The translations under genes and the position numbers were made by a program. Positions 4,237 through 13,306 of a stretch of DNA of 32,000 bases are shown here, piece after piece (positions within the stretch are counted from its first letter, which is position 1; the number at the start of each line of letters is the position of its first letter). The DNA lies in assembly GCA_020632885.1 (NCBI GenBank), contig JACKEQ010000004.1, forward strand, positions 73,361-105,360. The letters are read 5' to 3'. Origin of the DNA: Alphaproteobacteria bacterium (lineage in GTDB: Bacteria > Myxococcota_A > UBA796 > GCA-2862545). Under the pieces are notes generated by a model. The model searched no databases. It saw only the letters and a program-made list of their open reading frames with translations, and was not told the DNA's origin.

Positions 4237-6399
4237 ATGCGAGAGCTCGTCCTCGTCGGAGCCGGCCACACGCACGTCCAGGTGCTGAAGATGGCCGCCA
4301 TGGAGCCCCTCGACGCGCGGATCACGCTCGTCGTGGACGACCCCGTCGCGGTCTACAGCGGCATGGTCCCGGGGCTCGTCGCGGGTCGGTACGCGCCCCA
4401 CGAGCTGGAGATCGACGCCCGCCCCCTCGCGAAGCGCGCCGGGGTCAGGGTGATCCACGCCCGCGCCACGCGCGTCGACACGGAGGCACGCTGCATCCAC
4501 GTCGAGGGGCGCCCGCCCATCCGGTACGACGTGGCCAGCCTGAACATCGGGTCCACGGTGGCGGGGCTCGAGCTGGCAGGGGTCCGTGAGCACGCCGTGC
4601 CCACGCGGCCCATCCGCGTGCTGGTCGACGCCGTCGAGGCCCGCATGCAGGCCACCGGCCCCACGCCCGACGTCGTCATCGTGGGTGCGGGCGCGGGCGG
4701 CGTGGAGCTCGCGTTCTGTGTGGAACAGCGCCTGCGCGAGCTCGGTCGGGTGCCGCGCGTGACCCTCGCCCACCGGGGGGCCCATCCCCTCGAGGGCCAG
4801 CACACCCGGGTCCAGGGGCGCGTCGAGGACGCGGCCACACGGCGGGGCATCCGGCTCGCGCCGCACACCGAGGTCACGGCGGTCACGGCGACGTCCGTGG
4901 AGACGACGGCGGGCAGCCTGCCTTCCGACCTCACGGTCTGGGTGACGGGGGCCGCCGCGCACGGTGTCCTGCGTGACAGCGGGCTGCCGGTCGACGCGCG
5001 GGGGTTCGTGTTCGTGGGCGACGACCTGCGTGTGGAGGGCCATCCCGACCTGTTCGCCGCGGGAGACTGCGCGGTGCTGCGGAGCTGGCCGGGCATCCCG
5101 AAGGCGGGCGTGTACGCCGTGCGCGAGGGTCCCGTGCTCCTGGCGAACCTGCGGGCCCACCTCGCGGGCCGGCCGCTGGCGCCGTACCGTCCGCAGCGCG
5201 ACTTCTTCGGCATCCTCAACCTCGGCGACGGCACGGCCATCGGGACGAAGTGGGGCGTGGCCGTCGAGGGCGGCTGGGTGATGGAGCACAAGGACCGCAT
5301 CGACCGTCGGTTCATGCGGATGTTCCAGGTGCTCGAGCCCGACGGCAGGGTGGCCTCCGACTTCGACCGACCCATGAGCGCCATGGAGGGCGAGATGGTC
5401 TGCGGGGGCTGTGCCGCCAAGGTCGCTGCACGCCCCCTGCAGCGGGCCCTCTCGCGTCTCCCGCCCGTGGTGGACCCCGACGTGGCGGTGGGTCCCGAGG
5501 ACGCCGACGACGTCGTGGCGTGGCGGGACGGCGGACGGCTCGTGGTGCAGAACGTGGACGCCTTCAGCGCCTTCACGGACGACCCGTGGGTCGTGGGCCG
5601 CGTGGCCGCGCACAACGCGACGAGCGACGTGTGGGCGAAGGGTCTGGCGCCCCGGTTCGCCATGGCCACGGTGCAGATCCCGACGGACGACGACCACGAG
5701 GAGACGCTGTTCCAGGTCATGGCGGGCCTCAGAGCGAGCCTGGACCCCGAGGGCATCGCGCTGCTCGGGGGTCACACCACGCTGGGCGAGAAGCTCGTGG
5801 TGGGCCTGGTGGTCACGGCGATAGCGGACGAGCTGCCGTGGCGGAACCGGGGCGCGCGTCCTGGCGACACGCTCGTGCTGACGCGTCGCCTGGGGACCGG
5901 GGTCCTGTTCCACGCCGACATGGCGGGTCGGGCGCCCGGTCGGGCCGTGGACGCCGTGCTGAACACGATGCTGCGGGGCAACCGGCTCGCCTCGGAGCTG
6001 GCCCGTGGGCAGGCGGTGCACGCGTGCACGGACGTCACGGGCTTCGGGCTGGCGGGCCACCTGGCGGAGGTCGTGCGGGGCTCGGGCTGCGGCGCGGTGC
6101 TGGAGCTCGCGGCGCTGCCGGCCTTCCCCGCCGTGGAGGGGTTGCTGGCCCAGGGCGAGCGCTCGACCTTCCACGAGCAGAACCGGGAGCTCCTGAAGGT
6201 CGTGGCGGCGAAGGGGGACGCGGCACGCCACCCGCGCTTCGAGCTCCTGTTCGACCCGCAGACGGCCGGGGGTCTGCTGTTCGCGACGCCCGATCCAGAC
6301 GGGCTGATCGCCGCTCTGGAGGCGGGCGGCGACACGGCCTGGCGGATCGGGGTGTGCACGGAGCCCCACGAATCGGGCGCGGTGTTCGAGGTCGTCTGA
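4237..6399 (+). CDS. selD: Bifunctional FAD-dependent pyridine nucleotide-disulfide oxidoreductase / selenide, water dikinase (SelD) fusion
   Basis: The N-terminal half has VLVGAGHTH (Rossmann), VVIVGAGAGGVELA and FAAGDCAV. The C-terminal half starts MVCGGCAAKV (SelD Cys/Lys loop) and has DDPWVVGRVAAHNATSDVWAKG, LLGGHTT and ACTDVTGFGLAGHL (PurM/AIR-synthase-like fold). This matches the known N-terminal-to-SelD fusion family. Confidence 0.92.
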   Translation: MRELVLVGAGHTHVQVLKMAAMEPLDARITLVVDDPVAVYSGMVPGLVAGRYAPHELEIDARPLAKRAGVRVIHARATRVDTEARCIHVEGRPPIRYDVASLNIGSTVAGLELAGVREHAVPTRPIRVLVDAVEARMQATGPTPDVVIVGAGAGGVELAFCVEQRLRELGRVPRVTLAHRGAHPLEGQHTRVQGRVEDAATRRGIRLAPHTEVTAVTATSVETTAGSLPSDLTVWVTGAAAHGVLRDSGLPVDARGFVFVGDDLRVEGHPDLFAAGDCAVLRSWPGIPKAGVYAVREGPVLLANLRAHLAGRPLAPYRPQRDFFGILNLGDGTAIGTKWGVAVEGGWVMEHKDRIDRRFMRMFQVLEPDGRVASDFDRPMSAMEGEMVCGGCAAKVAARPLQRALSRLPPVVDPDVAVGPEDADDVVAWRDGGRLVVQNVDAFSAFTDDPWVVGRVAAHNATSDVWAKGLAPRFAMATVQIPTDDDHEETLFQVMAGLRASLDPEGIALLGGHTTLGEKLVVGLVVTAIADELPWRNRGARPGDTLVLTRRLGTGVLFHADMAGRAPGRAVDAVLNTMLRGNRLASELARGQAVHACTDVTGFGLAGHLAEVVRGSGCGAVLELAALPAFPAVEGLLAQGERSTFHEQNRELLKVVAAKGDAARHPRFELLFDPQTAGGLLFATPDPDGLIAALEAGGDTAWRIGVCTEPHESGAVFEVV

Positions 6400-6403
6400 C
6401 CCT

Positions 6404-6955
6404 TCACGCGTCCAGGAAGGCCGCGAGGGCCGACCGCAGATCGGCGACCCGGATCCGCTGTACCCACGCGAGCTCGTGTCCCGAGTCGTCCGAGAGCAAC
6501 ACGCGGTCGGGGTCGGCGGCGTGGCTCGCGATGAACCAGTCCACGTGGGTGCCCCACCGGCCGGTCTCGCCGCGGTCGGCCCGCGCCTGACGCCGTGCCG
6601 ACCGCCAAGCGGAGTCGTCGGGGTACGCGCGCCACAGCTCACGCGCATACCGGGTCGCCGCGAGCGCCTCGAAGGGCTCCAGCTCGCCACCCCCATTCAC
6701 GAAGGCGTCCATGCTCTCCCGGATCAAGTCGACATCGTAGCCGTGACCGTACGTGCGCCGATGGCGGAAAACGGACTCCGCGCTCACCAACCATGGCACC
6801 ACGAGCCGCAGGAGGGTCTGCCCGGCCTTCCGATTCACCTGCTCCAGCGGCTTCTGGAGGGCCTCGTACTGGCGCCGGACCATCGCATTGGTGTCGAGCA
6901 CCACCACAGTGGCTCGGCCCGCCCGCAGTCGGGCGCGGAGCTCATCCGAGGTCAT
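6404..6955 (-). CDS. PIN-domain (VapC-like) putative ribonuclease toxin
   Basis: The four acidic PIN positions appear in canonical context: VVVLDTNA (D21), LVSAESVF (E), HVDWFIASHA (D) and VLLSDDSG (D). The ATG at 6955 lies 14 nt inside the 3' end of the upstream ATPase gene. Confidence 0.8.
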   Translation of the reverse strand: MTSDELRARLRAGRATVVVLDTNAMVRRQYEALQKPLEQVNRKAGQTLLRLVVPWLVSAESVFRHRRTYGHGYDVDLIRESMDAFVNGGGELEPFEALAATRYARELWRAYPDDSAWRSARRQARADRGETGRWGTHVDWFIASHAADPDRVLLSDDSGHELAWVQRIRVADLRSALAAFLDA

Positions 6956-8147
6956 CGCCGTCCGCCGCGAACGGGAGCGGGTGCCGCTCTCGCCACCGAT
7001 CCTCCGAGAAGACGCGCAGCTCGCCGGGCTCGCCCCTCACGACGAAAACCCGCCCTCCCTCGGGCAGGCCGAGGTGCTCGCGCGCGAAGCCGTTGAACCG
7101 GAGCGCGCCCTCAGTGGACATGTAGGACTGCGGTGCGTCTGCGGGAGCCACGCCGGGGGCGAGGACCCCGGTGACATCGGAGGCCTCGCCGCCTGGACGC
7201 CGGGAGACCCGGAGACCTTCCGCGGTGCGCTCCAGATGGAAGAACGCGCCGCCCCGCTCGAAGACGGGCGAGTGGCTCGTGAGCAGGATCTGGGAGGGCC
7301 CGCGTGGGTCGGCCACGATGAAGTGCAGGGCCTCCGCGAGCCGCTCCTGCACGTCCATCCGCAGGTTGAGCTCGGGCTCTTCGATGGCGACGATGTCGGC
7401 GCCACACGTCAGCACGCGCCCGATGAGCGCCACGACCTGCTGCGCGCCGGAACCGAGCAGATAGGCGGGCAACCGACCGTCGGGGGTCTCCAGCACCACG
7501 AGCGCCCTGCCCTCTTCGCGGCGGTAGACGACGTTGATCTCCCGGCCGCCGAGGAGCTCGCGGAAGCGCGCCATCACGTCGCGGAAGAGGTCCATGCGCT
7601 GGATGGCCGCCGTCTCGAGGCTGTCGCGGGCATCGAACAGCGCCATGGCCACGTCGGCCGGGATCTGCCCGCGGTCGTGGGGGTCGCGGTTGCTGCCGCC
7701 GTCGCCGATCTCGGTGCGATCGACCTGGATGTGCTGGAACCGCGGAGAGTCCCGCAACGCCTCCCATGCTGCCCTGTCATGTCGGTCCGGGCGCGGCTGA
7801 ACGCGCACACCATCCCCTCCCCAGGTGACCTCCACCCTGGCAGGGACGGCCACGCCTTCCACGCCCAGCTCGAAGCGAGCGTGTCCGTGGCCACCCAAGG
7901 TGTAGAAGTCCCGAGGGTCCATCCTCACCACCGAAGCGAAGTTGCGGCGATCCAACTCGAGCGACCCGAGCTTGTCCTGTAAGAACAGCAGGTCGATAAG
8001 CCGAAGGCACGCGCCGATGGCCTCGACCACATTGGACTTCCCGACGTCGTTGGCTCCGTGGAGCACGACCACGCCGCCCATGCCCTCCAGGCGCACCTCG
8101 TCGACGAGGTTCTTGAAGCCCTGGACCGCGAATGTCTCGATGCGCAC
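6942..8147 (-). CDS. SMC/RecF/OLD-type ABC ATPase (AAA_21/AAA_15-like) with a C-terminal AbrB/SpoVT/MazE-like domain
   Basis: GTG start at 8147 with GGAGG 5 nt upstream. Motifs are Walker A VVLHGANDVGKSN, signature-like LLGSGAQQ, Walker B/D-loop DIVAIEEPELNL and H-loop LLTSHSP. No nuclease domain is present. The last about 58 aa (nt 6945-7118), STEGALRFNGFAREHLGLPEGGRVFVVRGEPGELRVF, resemble a swapped-hairpin AbrB-type domain and are followed by an acidic tail FAADGDDLG. Confidence 0.85.
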   Translation of the reverse strand: MRIETFAVQGFKNLVDEVRLEGMGGVVVLHGANDVGKSNVVEAIGACLRLIDLLFLQDKLGSLELDRRNFASVVRMDPRDFYTLGGHGHARFELGVEGVAVPARVEVTWGGDGVRVQPRPDRHDRAAWEALRDSPRFQHIQVDRTEIGDGGSNRDPHDRGQIPADVAMALFDARDSLETAAIQRMDLFRDVMARFRELLGGREINVVYRREEGRALVVLETPDGRLPAYLLGSGAQQVVALIGRVLTCGADIVAIEEPELNLRMDVQERLAEALHFIVADPRGPSQILLTSHSPVFERGGAFFHLERTAEGLRVSRRPGGEASDVTGVLAPGVAPADAPQSYMSTEGALRFNGFAREHLGLPEGGRVFVVRGEPGELRVFSEDRWRERHPLPFAADGDDLG

Positions 8148-8198
8148 GGCGCCTCCAGAGATCCAGCGTATCCCGGCCCCCAGCGCGCCGACCGGAAG

Positions 8199-9041
8199 CT
8201 ACGCCCACCCCGCCGGGATCCGCTCCAGGAGCCCGTCGCCGTACACGTCCAGCAGACCGAGCTCCGGCATGTGCACGTACCCGATGTGGCAACGGCACAC
8301 GTCGTTCGTGCACGGACGTGGCGCCGACAGCGCGTCCAGCCCGTCCACGTAGAGGTTCCCGAGGGGCGCGCCGATGAAGTGACACCGCCGGACCGTGCCC
8401 TCCCCGTCCACACTGAAGTGCGACTCCCCTCCCCGGCACGCCCGGTCCAGCGAGGGGTACACCCGGTTGTCGTCGAACCGCGGGTCCACCGCCCGGATCC
8501 GCGCGCGGTCGGCGTCCGCGTAGTAGTCCGCCTCGCGCTTGTACGCGTTCACCCAGACGTACGTGCTCCGCGGCAGGGCCGCCCGCAGGGCCTCGATGGC
8601 GTCCAGGTGCTCCAGCAGGCCCACCACGCCGACCGAGTGACGCACGCCGAGCGCCCGCAACCGCTCGCACTGCCGCAGGAACCGGTCCATCCCGACCTCG
8701 CCGGGATGCCAGGTGGCCCACAGCGCCACCGTGTCGAGGTCCGCCTCCTCCAGCCAGTCGAGCTTCATCGAGAGGTTCGTCTGCGCGGCGACCCGCCGCA
8801 CCCCGGGCGCCCGCGAGAGCCGCACCATCGCGTCCCGGTACCAGCTCCGGACCAGCGCCTCCCCCCAGGGCGTGAAGAGCACCCCGAGGTCGTCCTGGAC
8901 CTCCGCCCACTCCACGAACCGCGAGAGCCCCGCCCTGTCGGCCTCCAGGACCTCCGGTGGCTCCCAGGCCTTGGCGAACGGACAGTACGGACACGCGAAG
9001 TTGCAGCTCGACAGCGGACCCCGGTAGTGGATCGTCCTCAC
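8199..9041 (-). CDS. Radical SAM protein (STM4011-like), 280 aa
   Basis: CxxxCxxC motif SSCNFACPYCPF lies near the N-terminus, and there is a Cys-rich C-terminus (RRCHF, PCTNDVCRCHIGY). The GTG start at 9041 overlaps the upstream stop (GTGA, 9038-9041). The long N-terminal extension in track ORF 8199..10169 has shadow-type composition and overlaps the upstream gene. Confidence 0.85.
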   Translation of the reverse strand: MRTIHYRGPLSSCNFACPYCPFAKAWEPPEVLEADRAGLSRFVEWAEVQDDLGVLFTPWGEALVRSWYRDAMVRLSRAPGVRRVAAQTNLSMKLDWLEEADLDTVALWATWHPGEVGMDRFLRQCERLRALGVRHSVGVVGLLEHLDAIEALRAALPRSTYVWVNAYKREADYYADADRARIRAVDPRFDDNRVYPSLDRACRGGESHFSVDGEGTVRRCHFIGAPLGNLYVDGLDALSAPRPCTNDVCRCHIGYVHMPELGLLDVYGDGLLERIPAGWA

Positions 9042-10342
9042 CGCAGCTCCCAGGCGTCCATCCTGGCCTTCACGGCGTCCGAGTACAGCCAGGGCCCGAT
9101 GGCGTCCGACCAGGCCAGCCCCTCGGCCGTCAGCCGCAGCCGGCCGGGCAGCTCCTCCGCGAGCCCGTGCTCCACGAGGCCCCCGAGCTGCGGGAATCGC
9201 TCCCGCACGTCGCCGAAGGCCTCCGCGAAGGCCACCGTGTCGAGACCCTCGGCCTGCAGCAGCCCCTGGAGCAGGTAGCGGCGGGCGCGCTCGTCGAGGT
9301 CCAGCACGAAGCCCCAGTCGACCCGCGTGGGGTCGTCGCGGTCGAGCCACGCGTCCAGCTCGTCCAGGACGGCCCCTCCACCCACCGCGAAACGCGTGGC
9401 ATGGTGTACCCGGCGCGTGTAGCTGCGCGCCCCGGGCCCGAGGCCCACCATGCCGTCCGCCTGGCATTTGTAGGGCGTGTGCACGACCGGCGCCCAGGGC
9501 GCCCGGAACATCCGCATGGAGGTCTGCTCGTAGCCGCACGACACCAACAGATCCCGGCCGATCCGGTAGAGCTCCAGCCGGTCGTCGGGTGCGTCGTGGC
9601 CGCGCCGATCGAGGCCCGTGAGCGGACGGACGAACAGCGGGTAGAGGAAGATCTCCTCCGGACGCCACTCCAGCGCGGCCGTCAGGCTGTCGACCCACGT
9701 GGCGGGCGTCTGGCCCGCCAGGCCGTAGATGAGGTCGATGTTGAGCGTGGGCACCCGCGACGCCCGCAGCGCCTCGAGGGCCGTCTGCACCGTCATGCCG
9801 CGCTGGGTCCGCCCCATCGCGCGCGCCTCGCTGTCCACGAAGGACTGCACGCCCAGACTGGCCCGCGTCGTCCCCCGCCGCACGAGGAGGTCGGCCTTGC
9901 CCGGCGTCACGGTCTCCGGCGAGCACTCTACCGAGAGCGGCATGCTCCCGAGGGGCGCACCCATGGTGTGCCCGAGGACGTCGAACACCCGATCGAGCCC
10001 GCCCTCGTCGAGCCAGGTGGGCGTGCCGCCCCCGACGGCCCCGGTGACGAACCGCGCATCCGGCAGCACCTCGCGCACCCGCGTCGCCTGCCGGGCGAGC
10101 TGCTGGAGGTACCGCTCCTGCCGCTCGGGGGCCCCGCGCACCGTGGTGAACAGGTTGCAGAAGGAGCACCGCTGGAAGCAGAACGGCACGTGGGCGTACA
10201 GGAACAGCGAGGAGGTGTCCTCGCCCGCCCAGACGTCCTCGAGGGCGAGCGCCAGCTCCAGCGCGCGGTACGCCGTCTTGTGGGGGTAGGCATACGCGTA
10301 GCCCGCGTAGGGTCCGGTGCCGAAGAGCGCGCTGGGGTCCAT
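9038..10342 (-). CDS. HemN-like (oxygen-independent coproporphyrinogen oxidase family) radical SAM protein (STM4012-like)
   Basis: YAHVPFCFQRCSFCNLF (CxxxCxxC), GGGTPT, SLGVQSF, NIDLIYGLAGQT, and a HemN_C-like C-terminal region. Confidence 0.9.
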   Translation of the reverse strand: MDPSALFGTGPYAGYAYAYPHKTAYRALELALALEDVWAGEDTSSLFLYAHVPFCFQRCSFCNLFTTVRGAPERQERYLQQLARQATRVREVLPDARFVTGAVGGGTPTWLDEGGLDRVFDVLGHTMGAPLGSMPLSVECSPETVTPGKADLLVRRGTTRASLGVQSFVDSEARAMGRTQRGMTVQTALEALRASRVPTLNIDLIYGLAGQTPATWVDSLTAALEWRPEEIFLYPLFVRPLTGLDRRGHDAPDDRLELYRIGRDLLVSCGYEQTSMRMFRAPWAPVVHTPYKCQADGMVGLGPGARSYTRRVHHATRFAVGGGAVLDELDAWLDRDDPTRVDWGFVLDLDERARRYLLQGLLQAEGLDTVAFAEAFGDVRERFPQLGGLVEHGLAEELPGRLRLTAEGLAWSDAIGPWLYSDAVKARMDAWELR

Positions 10343-10350
10343 GCCCGCCG

Positions 10351-11151
10351 TTATCCCAACGACGCCACGGGCACGCTGGCGAGCCGCACCATCAGCGTCT
10401 CGCCCGCCCGGTACACCTCGAAGACCCGCACCGCACCGAGCGTCCCCGCCAGCGCCGGGCCCGTCAGCTCGGGCTCGAGCCCATCCAGGGGCTCGCCGTC
10501 GACCGTCAGCAGCACGTCACCCGCCAGGAGACGCCCTGCCGCCGGCCCTCCCGGGTGCACGGCGAGCACCTCCACCCCGCCCGCGACAGGCTGGATGCGC
10601 AGCCCGAGCGTGGGTCGGTCGTCCACGTCGTCCACGGGCTCCCGGGTGCCTCCACCGACCATCACGAGCGGCGAGGCCTCCCGGCGCACCGGGCGGAAGG
10701 AAGCCCGCGCGTCGGCCCGGTAGCCGAGCACGGCCGGCTGGAGCACCCCGAGAAGCTCGAGGGCCGCAGGCCCCCAGAGCGTCTCGAACCCGGCCCCCCA
10801 GGTCCCGACGGCCTTCTCGACGTCGCCGGCGTCGTGCTGCTCCAGACCCGCCCAGAGCTGCTGGAACACGACCTCGACCGTCTGGGAGGCCTGCATGGGC
10901 ACGGGTCCGTCGTCCGTCTCGCGCCAGTAGGCCTCGTAGGCCCCGAGCCCGGGCCAGTCGACGAGCATCGGGGACGCCAGACCCGGCGCGCGTCCCGGGA
11001 GCACCGGCAGGGCCGCCGCGCTGGCGACGACCAGCCCGAGACCGCGGTAGGTCGCGGTGATGCGCTCGTCGAGGGGGAGCGTGTGGGCATCCAGCCAGAG
11101 CCCGCAGAGGTCGCGGACCAGGTGGGCGAACAGGGCGGCGGTGTCGCTCAC
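10351..11151 (-). CDS. Hypothetical protein with a C-terminal PDZ domain
   Basis: The C-terminus LGLRIQPVAGGVEVLAVHPGGPAAGRLLAGDVLLTVDGEPL has the PDZ pattern. The N-terminal about 150 aa is unrecognised. The GTG start overlaps the upstream stop (GTGA at 11148-11151). Confidence 0.8.
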   Translation of the reverse strand: MSDTAALFAHLVRDLCGLWLDAHTLPLDERITATYRGLGLVVASAAALPVLPGRAPGLASPMLVDWPGLGAYEAYWRETDDGPVPMQASQTVEVVFQQLWAGLEQHDAGDVEKAVGTWGAGFETLWGPAALELLGVLQPAVLGYRADARASFRPVRREASPLVMVGGGTREPVDDVDDRPTLGLRIQPVAGGVEVLAVHPGGPAAGRLLAGDVLLTVDGEPLDGLEPELTGPALAGTLGAVRVFEVYRAGETLMVRLASVPVASLG

Positions 11152-11921
11152 AGGGTGAACCTCGCCCAGGGCACGGTGAGGACGTGCGGGTGGGCGACAC
11201 GGTGCCCGACGTGCCCGCCCTCGCCGTAGAGGGTGCCATGGTCGCTCGTCACCATGACCTCGGTGGGCCCGCGGGCCGCGAAGGCCGCGAACAACGGCGC
11301 CAGCGCGCCGTCCACGTAGCGGAGGGCGGCCCGGTGGGTCGCCAGCGAGTCCGTCTCCGCGCCGTCCACGTAGTGCCGGTTGGGCTGGTGGATGGCGCTG
11401 ACGTTCACGAAGGCGAGCACGCGACCGTCGAGCTCCGCGAGGCGCCCGACGAGCCAGGCCACCTGGTGCTCCGTGCTGTGGGGGTCGGTGACCCCGAAGC
11501 CCGTCTCCCAGCGGGACTCTGCGAAGAGCCCGGGAAGCACGGTGCCGAGGGGGGTGGCGGGGTTGAAGAAGCCCGTGCCCCCGACACAGATCGTGTGGTA
11601 GCCCGCATCCGCGAAGCCCCGCACGATGTCCGGCGCGTCGAACACCGTGGTGTGGGGCCCGATGGTCTCGGACCCGCCGAAGGCCACGGCGAGCTCGCGG
11701 ATGTGGGGACCCGGCGTGACCGGCGTGGGGAGGAACCCCGCGAAGAACGCGGCGTGGGCGGCGTAGGTGAAGGTCGCCGGAGAGTGGCGCTCCTCCCAGG
11801 CGTCCACGTACCGCGAGAGCACGGGCAGCTCGCCCGCCTCGAGCGCCGCGACGGCCACGTCGTACCTCAGGGTGTCGAGGGTGACGAAGAGCACGTCGTG
11901 GCGTCCGAGGACGGACCTCAC
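11148..11921 (-). CDS. Alkaline-phosphatase/sulfatase-superfamily hydrolase (STM4013-like)
   Basis: DVLFVTLDTLRYD is the metal-binding Asp plus nucleophile Thr motif. VMVTSDHGTLYGEGGHVGH is the C-terminal metal site. The GTG start at 11921 overlaps the upstream stop (GTGA 11918-11921). The upstream extension of the track ORF has shadow-type composition. Confidence 0.8.
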   Translation of the reverse strand: MRSVLGRHDVLFVTLDTLRYDVAVAALEAGELPVLSRYVDAWEERHSPATFTYAAHAAFFAGFLPTPVTPGPHIRELAVAFGGSETIGPHTTVFDAPDIVRGFADAGYHTICVGGTGFFNPATPLGTVLPGLFAESRWETGFGVTDPHSTEHQVAWLVGRLAELDGRVLAFVNVSAIHQPNRHYVDGAETDSLATHRAALRYVDGALAPLFAAFAARGPTEVMVTSDHGTLYGEGGHVGHRVAHPHVLTVPWARFTL

Positions 11922-13306
11922 TCGCTGACGCTCGTGTAGAACCAGTCCCGGTCCCGCTTCTGGTCGCCCGCGACCAGCGTGCCCGCGAAGGCGACGCGCA
12001 GCGCAGACACGGTCTCGTCGGACAAGAAGCTCTCCGAGACGTCCAGCTCCTCGAGGTGGGCCAGAGCCGGCAGGATGCCGAGGAGCGTCTGGGCGCCCTC
12101 GTCCGTGAGGATGCCCATGGACAGGTCGAGGTGCGTGAGCTGACGGATCAGCGGCCCGCCGGCGAGCACACCCACGATGTCGTTCGTGAAGCTCGCGTTC
12201 TTCAGGCCGAGGCGCTTCACGGCCGGCAGACCCGCGGTGTTGGCGAGGATCCCGGCGACGTGCTCGGCGCTGCACGACCCGCCGTAGTCGTCGGTGCCGA
12301 ACCACACCTCGAGCTCCTCGAGCGCCGGGTAGCTGCCCTTCGCGAGCTGCTCGGCCGGCTGGGTCGGCAGCCCGCCGGTCTCCAGCTTCAGGCGCTTCAG
12401 CTTCGGCGCCACCAGCGCCCCGAGGGCGATGTCGCCGCCCGTGATGGTGAGATCCTCGAGGTTGGGGAGGATGGGCCCCAGGGGCTCCACGGAGGTGTGG
12501 TAGGTCCAGGAGATCTCGGTGTCGTCGGGGTACTCGAAGGCCCCGAGGTGCAGCCGGCGCAGCGAAGGCCGGCGGCCCTGCTTCACGAGGAGCTTCACGG
12601 CGTCCTCGAACATGGCCTCCCCGTCGATCTCGAGGAGGCCGACCTCCAGCTCACGAAGGAACTGCGCGGACGGGTGCCGGAGCACGGCGCTGTAGAGCTT
12701 CTTGAGGTCGAGCTCCTCGACGTCCCAGTTGCCAGCGACCTTGACCCGCCGCCAGAACCCGTTCTCCCAGTCGATCTCGACGGCCTCGGCCTCGTCGCGA
12801 CCGGGCCGGACATCGCCGAAGAAGGCCGTGGCGTGCTTCTCGAGCAGCTCCTGCTCGCGGACCTTCAGCGGGCCCGGCGGCTCCGGCGCGGGTGCCGCCT
12901 CCCCACGGGGACGGGCTCGCACGCGCTCCTTCGGCTTGGTGACGGTCGCCCCGAGCTGCATCTGCACCGCCATGAGCTCACCGCGCGGGTCGCCAGCGGC
13001 CTGCAGGCTGTCGGCGAGCACGGACCACGCCTCGAGGTCGCCGGGATCGGACGTGATGCGCGCCACGATCTCCTCGTTGGGATCGGCCGTGCGCGCCTGG
13101 GCGGCGGCCTCGGCGTACCCCTTCTTCACCTTGGACGCGATGGCCGCGTCCGCCTTCTTCTGGGCCTCCTCGTGGCTCTTGAAGACCTTGGTGCTCGTCT
13201 GGCCGTCCGTGCCGGTACGACCGAAGCGGACGGTGTACGACTCCCCCTCCACCACGATCTCCCAGAACTTGTCGGACTTCCCGTCGCTGAACTCGAACCG
13301 CCGCAT
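11918..13306 (-). CDS. WGR domain / TIGR02996-like segment / leucine-rich repeat (RNI-like) protein (STM4015-like)
   Basis: N-terminus RRFEFSDGKSDKFWEIVVEGESYTVRFGRTGTDGQTSTK..KKGY is a WGR domain. LEAWSVLADSLQAAGDPRGELMAVQMQL is the myxobacterial/planctomycete repeat-companion motif. The C-terminal half has LRR-like units (LKRLKLETGGL, LEELEVW, VKRLGLKNASF, LTHLDLSMGIL, LEELDVSESFL). GGAGG lies 4 nt upstream of ATG 13306. Confidence 0.9.
   Translation of the reverse strand: MRRFEFSDGKSDKFWEIVVEGESYTVRFGRTGTDGQTSTKVFKSHEEAQKKADAAIASKVKKGYAEAAAQARTADPNEEIVARITSDPGDLEAWSVLADSLQAAGDPRGELMAVQMQLGATVTKPKERVRARPRGEAAPAPEPPGPLKVREQELLEKHATAFFGDVRPGRDEAEAVEIDWENGFWRRVKVAGNWDVEELDLKKLYSAVLRHPSAQFLRELEVGLLEIDGEAMFEDAVKLLVKQGRRPSLRRLHLGAFEYPDDTEISWTYHTSVEPLGPILPNLEDLTITGGDIALGALVAPKLKRLKLETGGLPTQPAEQLAKGSYPALEELEVWFGTDDYGGSCSAEHVAGILANTAGLPAVKRLGLKNASFTNDIVGVLAGGPLIRQLTHLDLSMGILTDEGAQTLLGILPALAHLEELDVSESFLSDETVSALRVAFAGTLVAGDQKRDRDWFYTSVSE

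Follow-up and report, generated by a model that had tools for sequence, protein, structure and literature searches.

The window, that is, the whole stretch of 32,000 nucleotides that was analysed, carries on its reverse strand a two-gene unit in which the gene for an ABC-type ATPase with a C-terminal antitoxin-like module overlaps the gene for a putative PIN nuclease. The unit comprises the following features:

8148..8198 (-): upstream intergenic region, 51 nt, with the ribosome-binding site GGAGG at 8152..8156
6942..8147 (-): ATPase gene with C-terminal antitoxin-like module, 401 aa, GTG start, stop codon included
7218..8147 (-): nucleotide-binding domain of the ATPase, residues 1 to ~310
8034..8057 (-): ATPase motif, Walker A, GANDVGKS
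7437..7457 (-): ATPase motif, signature, LGSGAQQ
7371..7394 (-): ATPase motif, Walker B, IVAIEEPE
7266..7280 (-): ATPase motif, H-loop, TSHSP
7137..7217 (-): variable, Pro/Ala/Gly-rich linker that joins the ATPase domain to the C-terminal module, residues ~311-337
7005..7130 (-): AbrB/SpoVT/MazE-like core, a predicted swapped-hairpin half-barrel, residues ~340-381
6945..7004 (-): short helix (residues 382-388, S-x-x-x-W/F motif) and disordered, partly acidic tail (residues 389-401), candidate toxin-binding segment
6942..6955 (-): overlap of ATPase stop and PIN start, 14 nt, predicted translational coupling
6404..6955 (-): PIN gene, putative toxin/effector, 183 aa, VapC-like, ATG start
6893..6895, 6776..6778, 6539..6541 and 6485..6487 (-): candidate catalytic residues D21, E60, D139 and D157 of the PIN gene

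Both open reading frames lie exactly where the sequence-only reading had placed them, with 14 nt in common (6942..6955), and the motifs it had quoted are all present in the translations, namely GANDVGKSN, LLGSGAQQ, IVAIEEPELNL, TSHSP and the C-terminal string in the ATPase, and VLDTNA, SAESVF, VDWFIASHA and LLSDD in the PIN protein. The two frames are far beyond chance; in DNA of 72% GC each displays a coding GC3 signature of 0.88, and hidden Markov models built without the window sequence recover the PIN protein with 95.9 bits (residues 1-181), the C-terminal module with 52 and the ATPase with 365. The 401-aa protein is 100% identical to a database entry named 'AAA family ATPase [Myxococcales bacterium]', and the NCBI annotation of the 183-aa gene uses a different start, which makes it shorter. 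A scan around the pair revealed no recognisable sigma-70 promoter and no terminator. The 51-nt upstream region contains no recognisable palindromic operator (best inverted repeat arm 5 nt, shuffle p=0.91), and such operators reached p<=0.05 upstream of the ATPase genes of 4 of 24 loci, with no clear enrichment.

The body of the ATPase matches the Pfam families AAA_21 (1.6e-14) and AAA_15 (7.7e-14), and a profile of its family retrieves AriA (8ux9, 4.9e-11) as the top PDB relative, followed by OLD, Eco8, GajA, RecF and SMC; the AriA match spans only profile positions 216-344, the C-terminal half of the ATPase domain. The ABC ATPase clade proposed from the sequence is thereby borne out, and profile scans of the 401-aa protein, stated earlier to lack a nuclease domain, likewise detected none. 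The depositors of 8v45 call this protein 'AriA antitoxin'. Across 19 members of the ATPase family the residues K37, S38, Q236, Q237, E256, E257, P258 and E259 are invariant, and H292 is nearly so. Top-residue frequency is 0.71 in Walker A and 0.67 in the signature/Walker B region, and falls to 0.32 in a poorly conserved insertion at residues ~51-140; the linker varies in both length and sequence in the family alignment (conservation 0.48). The PADLOC 'AriA' models match the ATPase (2.9e-15), with model lengths equal to those of Pfam AAA_21 and AAA_15 and with many other ATPase models matching as well, among them NsnB weakly (2.3e-7) and PtuA at the N-terminus only (1.1e-8).

The AlphaFold2 model of the 183-aa protein is confident (pLDDT 91.8, pTM 0.85), and its top 13 Foldseek matches in the PDB are all VapC proteins, with probability 1.00, E-values from 8.6e-5 to 1.4e-3 and target-normalised TM scores of 0.60-0.67. 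The acidic residues D21, E60, D139 and D157, in the canonical D-E-D-D order, are retained in all 83 of 83 relatives, and together with the VapC matches they uphold the earlier assignment to the PIN/VapC fold. The protein exceeds VapC by about 50 residues, and its sequence has diverged beyond the reach of the Pfam PIN model: PF01850 is matched by 4 of 7 relatives (best 7.9e-4), the window protein itself has no match in Pfam, NCBIfam or PADLOC, the PIN profile reaches VapC among PDB sequences at E~1.3 only, and a word-indexed search with the single window protein returned itself alone. The family comprises at least 96 homologous clusters, most members of which possess a four-Cys cluster. The downstream protein is probably a VapC-type PIN nuclease with RNase activity; toxicity and an RNA substrate are its predicted attributes.

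The last ~65 residues of the ATPase are predicted by AlphaFold2 to adopt a beta-beta-alpha-beta-beta fold with a core pLDDT of ~93, in which the strands occupy module positions 8-10, 16-18, 34-38 and 44-48 and the helix positions 20-25; a further helix follows at 49-55, and the last 8 residues have a pLDDT of 43. Foldseek places SpoVT (2w1t), Abh (2fy9), MazE (1ub4/2mrn) and AbrB (1yfb/9a4b) at the top of the matches to this model, all with non-significant E>=0.96, and ranks the F-plasmid VapB (9h6a_B) 34th. The Pfam model MazE_antitoxin is matched by 2 of 12 relatives (best 5.9e-4). A profile-profile comparison with hhalign aligns the module in register with AbrB-N (P=0.0027), such that a conserved arginine of the module coincides with R23 of AbrB, and gives P=0.13 only for VapB. 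The closest PDB sequence to the module profile is a designed double-psi barrel (E=0.1), and the last 60 residues of the ATPase have no match in Pfam, NCBIfam or PADLOC. The assignment as an AbrB-like module, already suggested in the sequence-only reading, thus draws on results that are individually weak (Foldseek E>=0.96, Pfam in 2 of 12 relatives) and all concordant. The window proteins themselves match neither the Pfam PIN model nor an AbrB model of Pfam, and it took relatives and structure prediction to make both assignments.

The extension beyond the module core is about 20 residues long, shorter than the usual toxin-wrapping regions of VapB. Its acidic tail had been proposed to occlude the active site of the PIN protein, and this role finds no support, since the tail shows the lowest conservation within the module (top-residue frequency 0.30, gaps 31%), is missing in several relatives and, in the loci with a 14-nt overlap that were inspected, contains an Asp codon (GAT-G) that provides the ATG of the overlapping PIN gene.

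PIN relatives were reached through the neighbours of ATPase homologues, and 34 non-redundant PIN loci were collected, of which 32 were assessable. In 32 of these 32 loci the PIN gene is immediately preceded by a module ORF, which bears out the tight co-conservation of the two genes; the module is fused to an ATPase in 30 loci and forms an antitoxin-like gene of its own, of 70 aa, in one, a fusion statistic that is biased to one subfamily because the PIN-seeded surveys used the single peptide pattern [VI]DWLI[AG][GA][HYQ]A. The PIN start is overlapped by 1-20 nt in 30 of 32 loci (14 nt also in L001, L003, L006, L014 and L022; elsewhere 1, 4, 8, 17 or 20 nt), and the other two have gaps of 8 and 119 nt. 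This synteny extends over Myxococcota and Thiotrichales, in loci whose GC content ranges from 33% to 73%. The family occurs chiefly in Myxococcota and giant sulfur bacteria.

Two loci depart from the common architecture. L026 encodes a bona fide stand-alone module of 70 aa, with an in-frame stop upstream and no ATPase; it consists of the same core and ~20-residue tail and nothing else, and its gene overlaps a PIN gene of the same family by 20 nt, in the classical antitoxin-first VapBC layout. L008 is the sole ATPase relative devoid of the module, and there the PIN gene is also absent and a Uma2 nuclease gene is found instead. Evolutionary distances correlate more strongly between module and PIN (r=0.85) than between ATPase and PIN (0.69) or ATPase and module (0.68), a mirror-tree pattern that could stem from differences in evolutionary rate or alignment length and not from physical contact. 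Degraded toxin genes were encountered as independent events, namely an internal deletion (L005), a frameshift (L007) and a deletion fusion (P0130), and the adjoining ATPase-module frame is intact wherever the whole gene is on the contig. That the PIN gene alone is inactivated time and again suggests that it is costly.

The flanking genes are different in every locus, and one Polyangium MAG contains two copies (L016 and L021), as would be expected of a mobile cassette. The defence-island context that had been envisaged was not seen, the neighbours being housekeeping genes that vary among loci. PIN-less solo copies of the module occur in phage-like gene arrays (L041 and L042/L043). PHROG scans of L041 identified a DNA-polymerase exonuclease subunit (5.5e-42) and phrog_871, and those of L042 nothing convincing. 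In IMG/VR, neither the PIN profile nor P0238, P0246 or a degenerate DNA pattern found a true match (three pattern matches being due to chance), tblastn against GenBank phages did not match the family, and tblastn of plasmids with a Sorangium family member found no match. The notion that the solo copies are phage decoys therefore stays a lead.

Contextual comparison with known systems shows which parts of this architecture have precedents. PADLOC, run on the pair, reports no system, as the sequence-only reading would have it, and literature searches for a system combining an ABC ATPase, an AbrB domain and a PIN protein found none among the papers open to searching. The claim that the architecture could not be placed in a named family stands for its new elements, a PIN protein as partner and an AbrB domain fused to the ATPase; it does not stand for the pairing of ABC-ATPase antitoxins with nuclease toxins, which is established in PARIS and NetFlax D29. 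PARIS and the 'AAA ATPase antitoxin' hub of NetFlax anticipate the concept. In PARIS, AriA sequesters AriB and releases it upon ATP-dependent sensing of a trigger (PMC11464382). Like the present pair, PARIS consists of two genes, one of which encodes an AAA_15/21 ABC ATPase without a nuclease domain; among solved structures AriA matches the present ATPase family best, and its variable surface, proposed as the trigger sensor, has a parallel in the hypervariable insertion. In contrast, AriB is a DUF4435/TOPRIM protein, whereas the effector here has a PIN fold, and AriA (464 aa, as against 401 aa) lacks an AbrB-like domain and holds AriB via the surface of the ATPase dimer. The D29 AAA ATPases of NetFlax neutralise TOPRIM_OLD and AarT toxins experimentally, with no convincing interface models for these antitoxins (PMC10440598). 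They are ATPases of the same type, validated as antitoxins of nuclease toxins and encoded first, for which the authors propose an Abi function (PMC10440598), and the node includes AbiL and Septu-like pairs. Their partners are TOPRIM_OLD/RloB, HNH, HEPN and AarT, the main text and the portion of the supplements covered here naming neither PIN nor an AbrB fusion, and the proteins are described as AAA-N plus AAA-C only.

The AbrB-type VapBC modules of Shigella and the F plasmid (3tnd, 9h6a) share with the present pair a PIN toxin with a D-E-D-D site, which includes the best fold matches, and an AbrB-type domain with a C-terminal extension that is encoded immediately upstream and translationally coupled. 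The VapBC antitoxin, however, is a small, labile, stand-alone protein of ~70-100 aa, matched only by the relative L026 (70 aa), whereas an ATPase of ~400-450 aa carries the module at its C-terminus in 30 of 32 loci. Menshen (ParB-like NsnA, ABC ATPase NsnB, and NsnC) also places an ABC ATPase gene beside that of a PIN-like protein, but the present pair has no flanking ParB/DUF262 gene, and NsnC combines a PIN domain devoid of catalytic residues with a C-terminal nuclease (PMC12065111), unlike the present PIN protein, which is intact and has no fused nuclease. Membership in four named systems was rejected because the defining effector is missing: in PARIS and Septu (PtuAB) the partner would be a DUF4435/TOPRIM AriB or an HNH PtuB, respectively, rather than a PIN fold, and the partner here matches no PADLOC model; OLD/Gabija GajA would have a TOPRIM domain where the C-terminus here is the AbrB-like module; and Menshen (NsnABC) would require a flanking NsnA gene, with a PIN protein that lacks the catalytic residues and has an extra nuclease domain.

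Taken together, we consider it moderately probable that the pair is a mobile, toxin-antitoxin-like two-gene cassette, in which the PIN nuclease is restrained by the AbrB/MazE-type module borne on the ATPase and the ATPase acts as the sensor; neutralisation by the module, gating by ATP and a role in phage defence are all putative components of this reading. The AbrB/MazE-type module, comprising core, short helix and tail, would bind the PIN protein from its flexible linker and hold it in an inactive state. Two chains are required to form an AbrB barrel, and ABC ATPases form head-to-tail dimers around ATP; the resting particle is therefore expected to be at least (ATPase)2:(PIN)2. By analogy with AriA-AriB of PARIS and the 'AAA antitoxins' of NetFlax D29, the ATPase body might serve as the sensor, with the hypervariable insertion (residues ~51-140) recognising the trigger. 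A nucleotide-dependent rearrangement could then release or unmask the PIN nuclease, which would arrest the cell in abortive infection or addiction.

The existence of the plain two-gene version L026, a gene order and coupling as in classical type II systems, housekeeping rather than defence neighbours, toxin decay typical of chromosomal TA loci, and the fact that AbrB-type antitoxins partner 24% of TA-associated PIN-like domains (PMC5499597) are also what one would expect of an ordinary type II VapBC addiction or stress module that persists as a selfish element. Its ATPase would sense nothing; its part would be confined to stabilising, oligomerising or regulating the antitoxin, for instance by aiding DNA binding or operon autoregulation. 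We regard this as unlikely, since the catalytic motifs of the ATPase are invariant across relatives of only ~35-45% identity, which places ATPase activity under selection; moreover, the insertion is hypervariable, like the trigger-recognition surfaces of AriA, and every characterised AAA_15/21 system with a partner nuclease is an Abi or defence system (PMC11464382, PMC10440598). Somewhat different expectations follow if the pair is a machine for nucleic-acid surveillance in the style of OLD/Gabija, divided between two genes, with the AbrB-like domain targeting the ATPase to DNA or RNA and the PIN protein as a recruited nuclease subunit, harmless alone. AbrB domains are primarily DNA-binding and the family arginine aligns with AbrB R23 in the hhalign register, the closest ATPases include the DNA-handling OLD, GajA, RecF and SMC, the relative L008 is paired with a Uma2 restriction-endonuclease-like protein, and the ABC ATPase of Menshen works with a PIN-like protein (PMC12065111). 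However, L026 pairs module and PIN in the absence of an ATPase, so that their relationship there is independent of an ATPase machine; the divergence of the module follows that of PIN more closely than that of the ATPase to which it is fused, VapC toxins from VapBC complexes are the closest structural matches of PIN, and the cost suggested by the inactivation of PIN alone sits poorly with a harmless subunit. The surveillance explanation accordingly strikes us as quite unlikely.

Long spurious ORFs abound in DNA of 72% GC, the NCBI start is different and yields a shorter protein, and the window protein has no Pfam match, all of which might be taken to mean that the 183-aa ORF is non-coding or functionally unrelated to the ATPase. 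The GC3 value of 0.88, the 96 or more homologous clusters, the leave-one-out HMM score of 95.9 bits, the confident AlphaFold2 model and the synteny of all 32 assessable loci in Myxococcota and Thiotrichales at 33% to 73% GC make such an artefact barely conceivable. Chance adjacency of the two genes is refuted by the comparative data on synteny.

A bolder extension of the reading in which the PIN nuclease is restrained by the ATPase-borne module is that the fusion is an ATP-driven 'antitoxin machine', an intermediate in the capture of VapBC by an ABC ATPase, and that the solo modules L041 and L042/L043 are viral antitoxin decoys; we find this rather doubtful. As the barrel needs two chains, opening and closing of the ATPase dimer could mechanically assemble or disrupt it and so license the PIN nuclease. 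Were the decoys real, the solo modules of phages would re-neutralise the released toxin.

ABC-ATPase sensors such as AriA, PtuA, GajA and the NetFlax D29 antitoxins restrain toxic partners. In the present family such restraint appears to come from a portable, recognisable antitoxin domain that is flexibly tethered, and the same module also occurs free-standing, as a 70-aa gene beside the same toxin family. The pair would thus offer a concrete evolutionary link between type II toxin-antitoxin modules and ATPase-gated abortive-infection systems, e.g. PARIS. The new PIN family, with at least 96 clusters, is missed by current PIN profiles, and it would widen the range of effectors in AAA_15/21 systems to include a PIN protein. 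It is centred on Myxococcota and giant sulfur bacteria, groups in which immunity has received little attention.

The cassette consists of two co-oriented reading frames, which were found in the window (GC 72%) as the sequence-only reading had described them, with every motif it quoted present in their translations:

6942..8147, minus strand: ATPase gene, 401 aa, GTG start, with GGAGG before the start
6404..6955, minus strand: PIN gene, 183 aa, ATG start

The frames share 14 nt, and both have a coding-type GC3 of 0.88, their neighbors being slightly higher (0.90-0.97). A protein encoded on a MAG contig of 529 kb and annotated "AAA family ATPase [Myxococcales bacterium]" is 100% identical to the ATPase. 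NCBI annotates the PIN gene with 165 aa and a start at V19, and this removes the overlap between the two genes. The ATG at 6955, giving the 183-aa form, is likely to be the real start and the public annotation a shortened one, because the 18 residues ahead of V19 (window 6901..6955, minus strand) are conserved among PIN relatives, the N-terminal helix has a pLDDT of 97 in the AF2 model, and the window protein scores 95.9 bits over residues 1-181 against a family HMM built without it. In the four junctions read base by base (window 6942..6955 and loci L001, L003 and L006) the geometry is fixed: an Asp codon of the ATPase tail, in the context GAT-G, provides the PIN ATG, and the TGA stop of the ATPase falls within PIN codons 4-5 (xAT-GAG or xCT-GAG). 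This 14-nt overlap geometry restricts both the "acidic tail" of the ATPase and the N-terminus of the PIN protein.

The last ~65 residues of the ATPase, here termed the module, are conserved throughout its family with the consensus Y-V-S-S-E-G-x-L-R-L-P-x-x-I-R-x-x-L-G-L-x-x-G-G-G-V-x-F, and AF2 models them as a β-β-α-β-β fold (core pLDDT about 93) that leads into a short helix and ends in a disordered tail. The AbrB-like C-terminus proposed from sequence agrees with this fold and with the best Foldseek matches, seven of nine of which are SpoVT, Abh, MazE or AbrB, but their E-values are 0.96 or worse; F-plasmid VapB appears further down the list. Most AbrB-like alignments have an RMSD of 2.5-3.9 Å over about 50 columns, and the 1ub4 MazE chain aligns at 11.9 Å over 70 columns. 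Among 12 module relatives scanned, two match Pfam MazE_antitoxin (best 5.9e-4) and one matches PrlF (0.15); in hhalign the motif falls into register with AbrB VDELGRVVIPIELRRTLGI (P=0.0027; AbrB sequence confirmed against 1z0r). These sequence and structure-model results, individually weak but concordant, allow us to call the module "AbrB/MazE-like" with moderate confidence. The accompanying proposal that the acidic tail occludes the PIN active site is weak: within the module, conservation is lowest in this tail, several relatives do without it, and in those 14-nt-overlap loci that were inspected its GAT-G codon provides the PIN start. The short helix after β4, with a conserved S-x-x-x-F/W, is a better candidate for the PIN contact.

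The PIN protein itself has no match in Pfam, NCBIfam or PADLOC, and a single-sequence search retrieved only itself; its family was reached via the genes neighboring ATPase homologs. A profile search recovers at least 96 clusters, whose members are about 195 aa long; they come from Myxococcota (Sorangium, Archangium, Haliangium, Cystobacter) and from Thiotrichales (Beggiatoa, Thioploca, Thiomargarita). The proposed PIN/VapC assignment holds: the acidic D21, E60, D139 and D157 are invariant among 83 sequences, as are T22, W117, W140 and L153, and each of the best 13 PDB matches of the alignment-based AF2 model (pLDDT 91.8, pTM 0.85) is a VapC toxin taken from a VapBC complex (probability 1.00, best E 8.6e-5). 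Pfam PIN is reached by four of seven relatives (best 7.9e-4). Four cysteines (C...CxxC...C) are conserved in 72-80 of the 83 members (alignment A4), which suggests a structural Zn site; the window protein is the only aligned sequence with none of the four (residues ~34, ~124, 134), and the CxxC-bearing insertion is absent from it (~residue 124).

The ATPase matches Pfam AAA_21 (1.6e-14) and AAA_15 (7.7e-14), and the Pfam search detected no nuclease domain, as the sequence-only reading had stated. Its PADLOC matches are scattered among generic ABC-ATPase models (AriA, mad3, HEC-01A, GajA, PtuA, NsnB, AbiLi). A profile of 19 relatives has PARIS AriA (8ux9/8v45; 4.9e-11) as its best solved-structure match, followed by OLD nuclease, retron Eco8, GajA, RecF and SMC, bearing out the suggested SMC/RecF/OLD-like clade. 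K37/S38 of Walker A, Q236/Q237 of the signature and E256/E257 of Walker B do not vary within the family, H292 of the H-loop is nearly invariant, and residues about 51-140 are hypervariable.

To investigate the linkage of these genes we pooled ATPase-seeded and PIN-seeded loci from genomes and metagenomes and de-duplicated them at 90% identity, which left 34 PIN loci, 32 of them assessable. In all 32 the PIN gene is immediately preceded by the module reading frame, and in 30 the module stop and the PIN start overlap, by 1-20 nt (usually 4, 8 or 14). Flanking genes are unlike in every locus, and the loci have GC contents between 33% and 73%; chance adjacency of the ATPase and PIN genes is refuted. 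Across the 24 complete loci the module-PIN distance correlation is 0.85, compared with 0.69 for ATPase-PIN and 0.68 for ATPase-module; the module therefore follows the PIN protein more closely than its own fused ATPase. In locus L026 a genuine stand-alone 70-aa module, with an in-frame stop upstream and comprising the core plus about 20 residues, overlaps a clear PIN-family gene by 20 nt. The module forms the ATPase C-terminus in 30 of the 32 loci, one further locus (L031) being truncated by a contig edge. The sole ATPase relative that lacks the module (P0017, in L008) also lacks the PIN gene; in this stretch (L008 4366..7117) an HTH_31/HTH_3 protein is encoded upstream of it and an Uma2 (restriction-endonuclease-like) protein downstream, suggesting effector swapping within the ATPase clade. 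One Polyangium MAG (binchicken_co186_95) carries two divergent cassettes (L016 and L021); multiple copies per genome are common for toxin-antitoxin and defense paralogs.

Degraded toxin genes occur in at least four independent cases, in three of which the ATPase-module frame is kept. L005 (6214..6450) has an internal deletion, the remnants of the two PIN termini now lying in different frames, and L007 (6190..6285) has a frameshift downstream of the DTNA motif. P0130 is a deletion fusion in which the PIN C-terminus directly follows an ATPase-module fragment that lacks its N-terminal part. In Candidatus Parabeggiatoa (L024, identical to L040) a ~200-nt AT-rich insert that looks MITE-like, bounded by inverted repeats (CAAGGATTGT...ACAATCCTTG), interrupts the PIN gene (L024 6241..6466, L040 4241..4466), and the ATPase gene is likewise interrupted, into two reading frames.

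Beyond the cassette, a module profile search yields 222 clusters (50% identity level). Of the 150 listed, roughly half are proteins of 400-480 aa that carry the module at their very C-terminal end; the others comprise fragments, solo proteins and proteins in which an unrelated N-terminal region is fused to it. As it lies inside or at the end of P0245, P0248, P0197, P0220 and P0185, behind unrelated non-ATPase regions, and as a tandem duplicate in the shortened ATPase P0116, the module looks like a mobile domain. Two solo modules of 60-63 aa (P0246 and P0238; L041 3001..3192, L042/L043 3001..3183) are embedded in tightly packed arrays of small, unannotated, co-directional genes that include no PIN or ATPase gene. 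L041 has phage-type PHROG matches, including a DNA-polymerase exonuclease subunit (5.5e-42); L042 has no convincing viral marker, and searches of IMG/VR and GenBank phages did not find the module. The L041 array could be viral, and the idea that the solo modules are "antitoxin decoys" of phages is no more than a lead.

In the window the cassette sits between a cluster of STM4011-STM4015 type and a gene for a SelD-related fusion protein, neighbors that are not defense genes:

8199..13306, minus strand: conserved function-unassigned cluster upstream of the ATPase gene, 51 nt away
within 8199..13306, minus strand: STM4011-family radical SAM protein (3.6e-110)
within 8199..13306, minus strand: STM4012-family radical SAM protein (1.6e-157)
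within 8199..13306, minus strand: PDZ protein
within 8199..13306, minus strand: WGR-domain protein, C-terminal part matching the STM4015 family (5.9e-57)
4237..6399, plus strand: pyridine-nucleotide-disulfide oxidoreductase/SelD-like fusion, 720 aa, converging on the PIN gene

The cassette may be co-transcribed with the cluster. The fusion protein matches NCBIfam "oxidoreductase/SelD-related fusion protein" (3.3e-135, under the model cut-off), and its stop codon is 4 nt from that of the PIN gene.

Membership of the pair in PARIS, OLD/Gabija, Septu or Menshen is ruled out, as the defining effector is missing, and none of seven PIN-family members matches a PADLOC v2 model. The AAA15/21 defense ATPases of the PARIS survey are partnered with TOPRIM, DUF4435, RloB, DUF4276, UvrD, DUF262, DUF3996, HNH and RT, with PIN not among them (PMC11464382). 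The NetFlax "AAA ATPase antitoxin" node D29, presented as AAA-N and AAA-C only, has TOPRIM_OLD, HNH, HEPN and AarT as partners (PMC10440598). The pair is not described in the PIN superfamily classification or in the eLife survey of conflict systems in multicellular bacteria. Like PARIS and D29 it would combine an ABC-ATPase "antitoxin" with a nuclease toxin, and it is set apart from such systems by its PIN effector, by the apparently canonical AbrB-type antitoxin domain fused to the ATPase, and by a free-standing homolog of that domain beside the same toxin family. It is unlikely that the cassette is simply an addiction module to which the ATPase is an accessory, and an OLD/Gabija-like split nuclease machine, with the AbrB domain as a nucleic-acid binder, is somewhat less likely still.

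The domain identities, synteny, coupling, stand-alone version and co-divergence are shown by this analysis, and the best-supported reading is a toxin-antitoxin-like cassette. AriA sequesters AriB and frees it upon ATP-dependent trigger recognition (PMC11464382), and D29 AAA ATPases neutralize TOPRIM_OLD and AarT toxins experimentally (PMC10440598); by analogy with these, the ATPase would be the controlling or sensing element. A VapC-type PIN nuclease, presumably toxic, would be restrained and neutralized by the AbrB-type module on the flexible tether of the ATPase, which would gate its release, possibly in a defense role.
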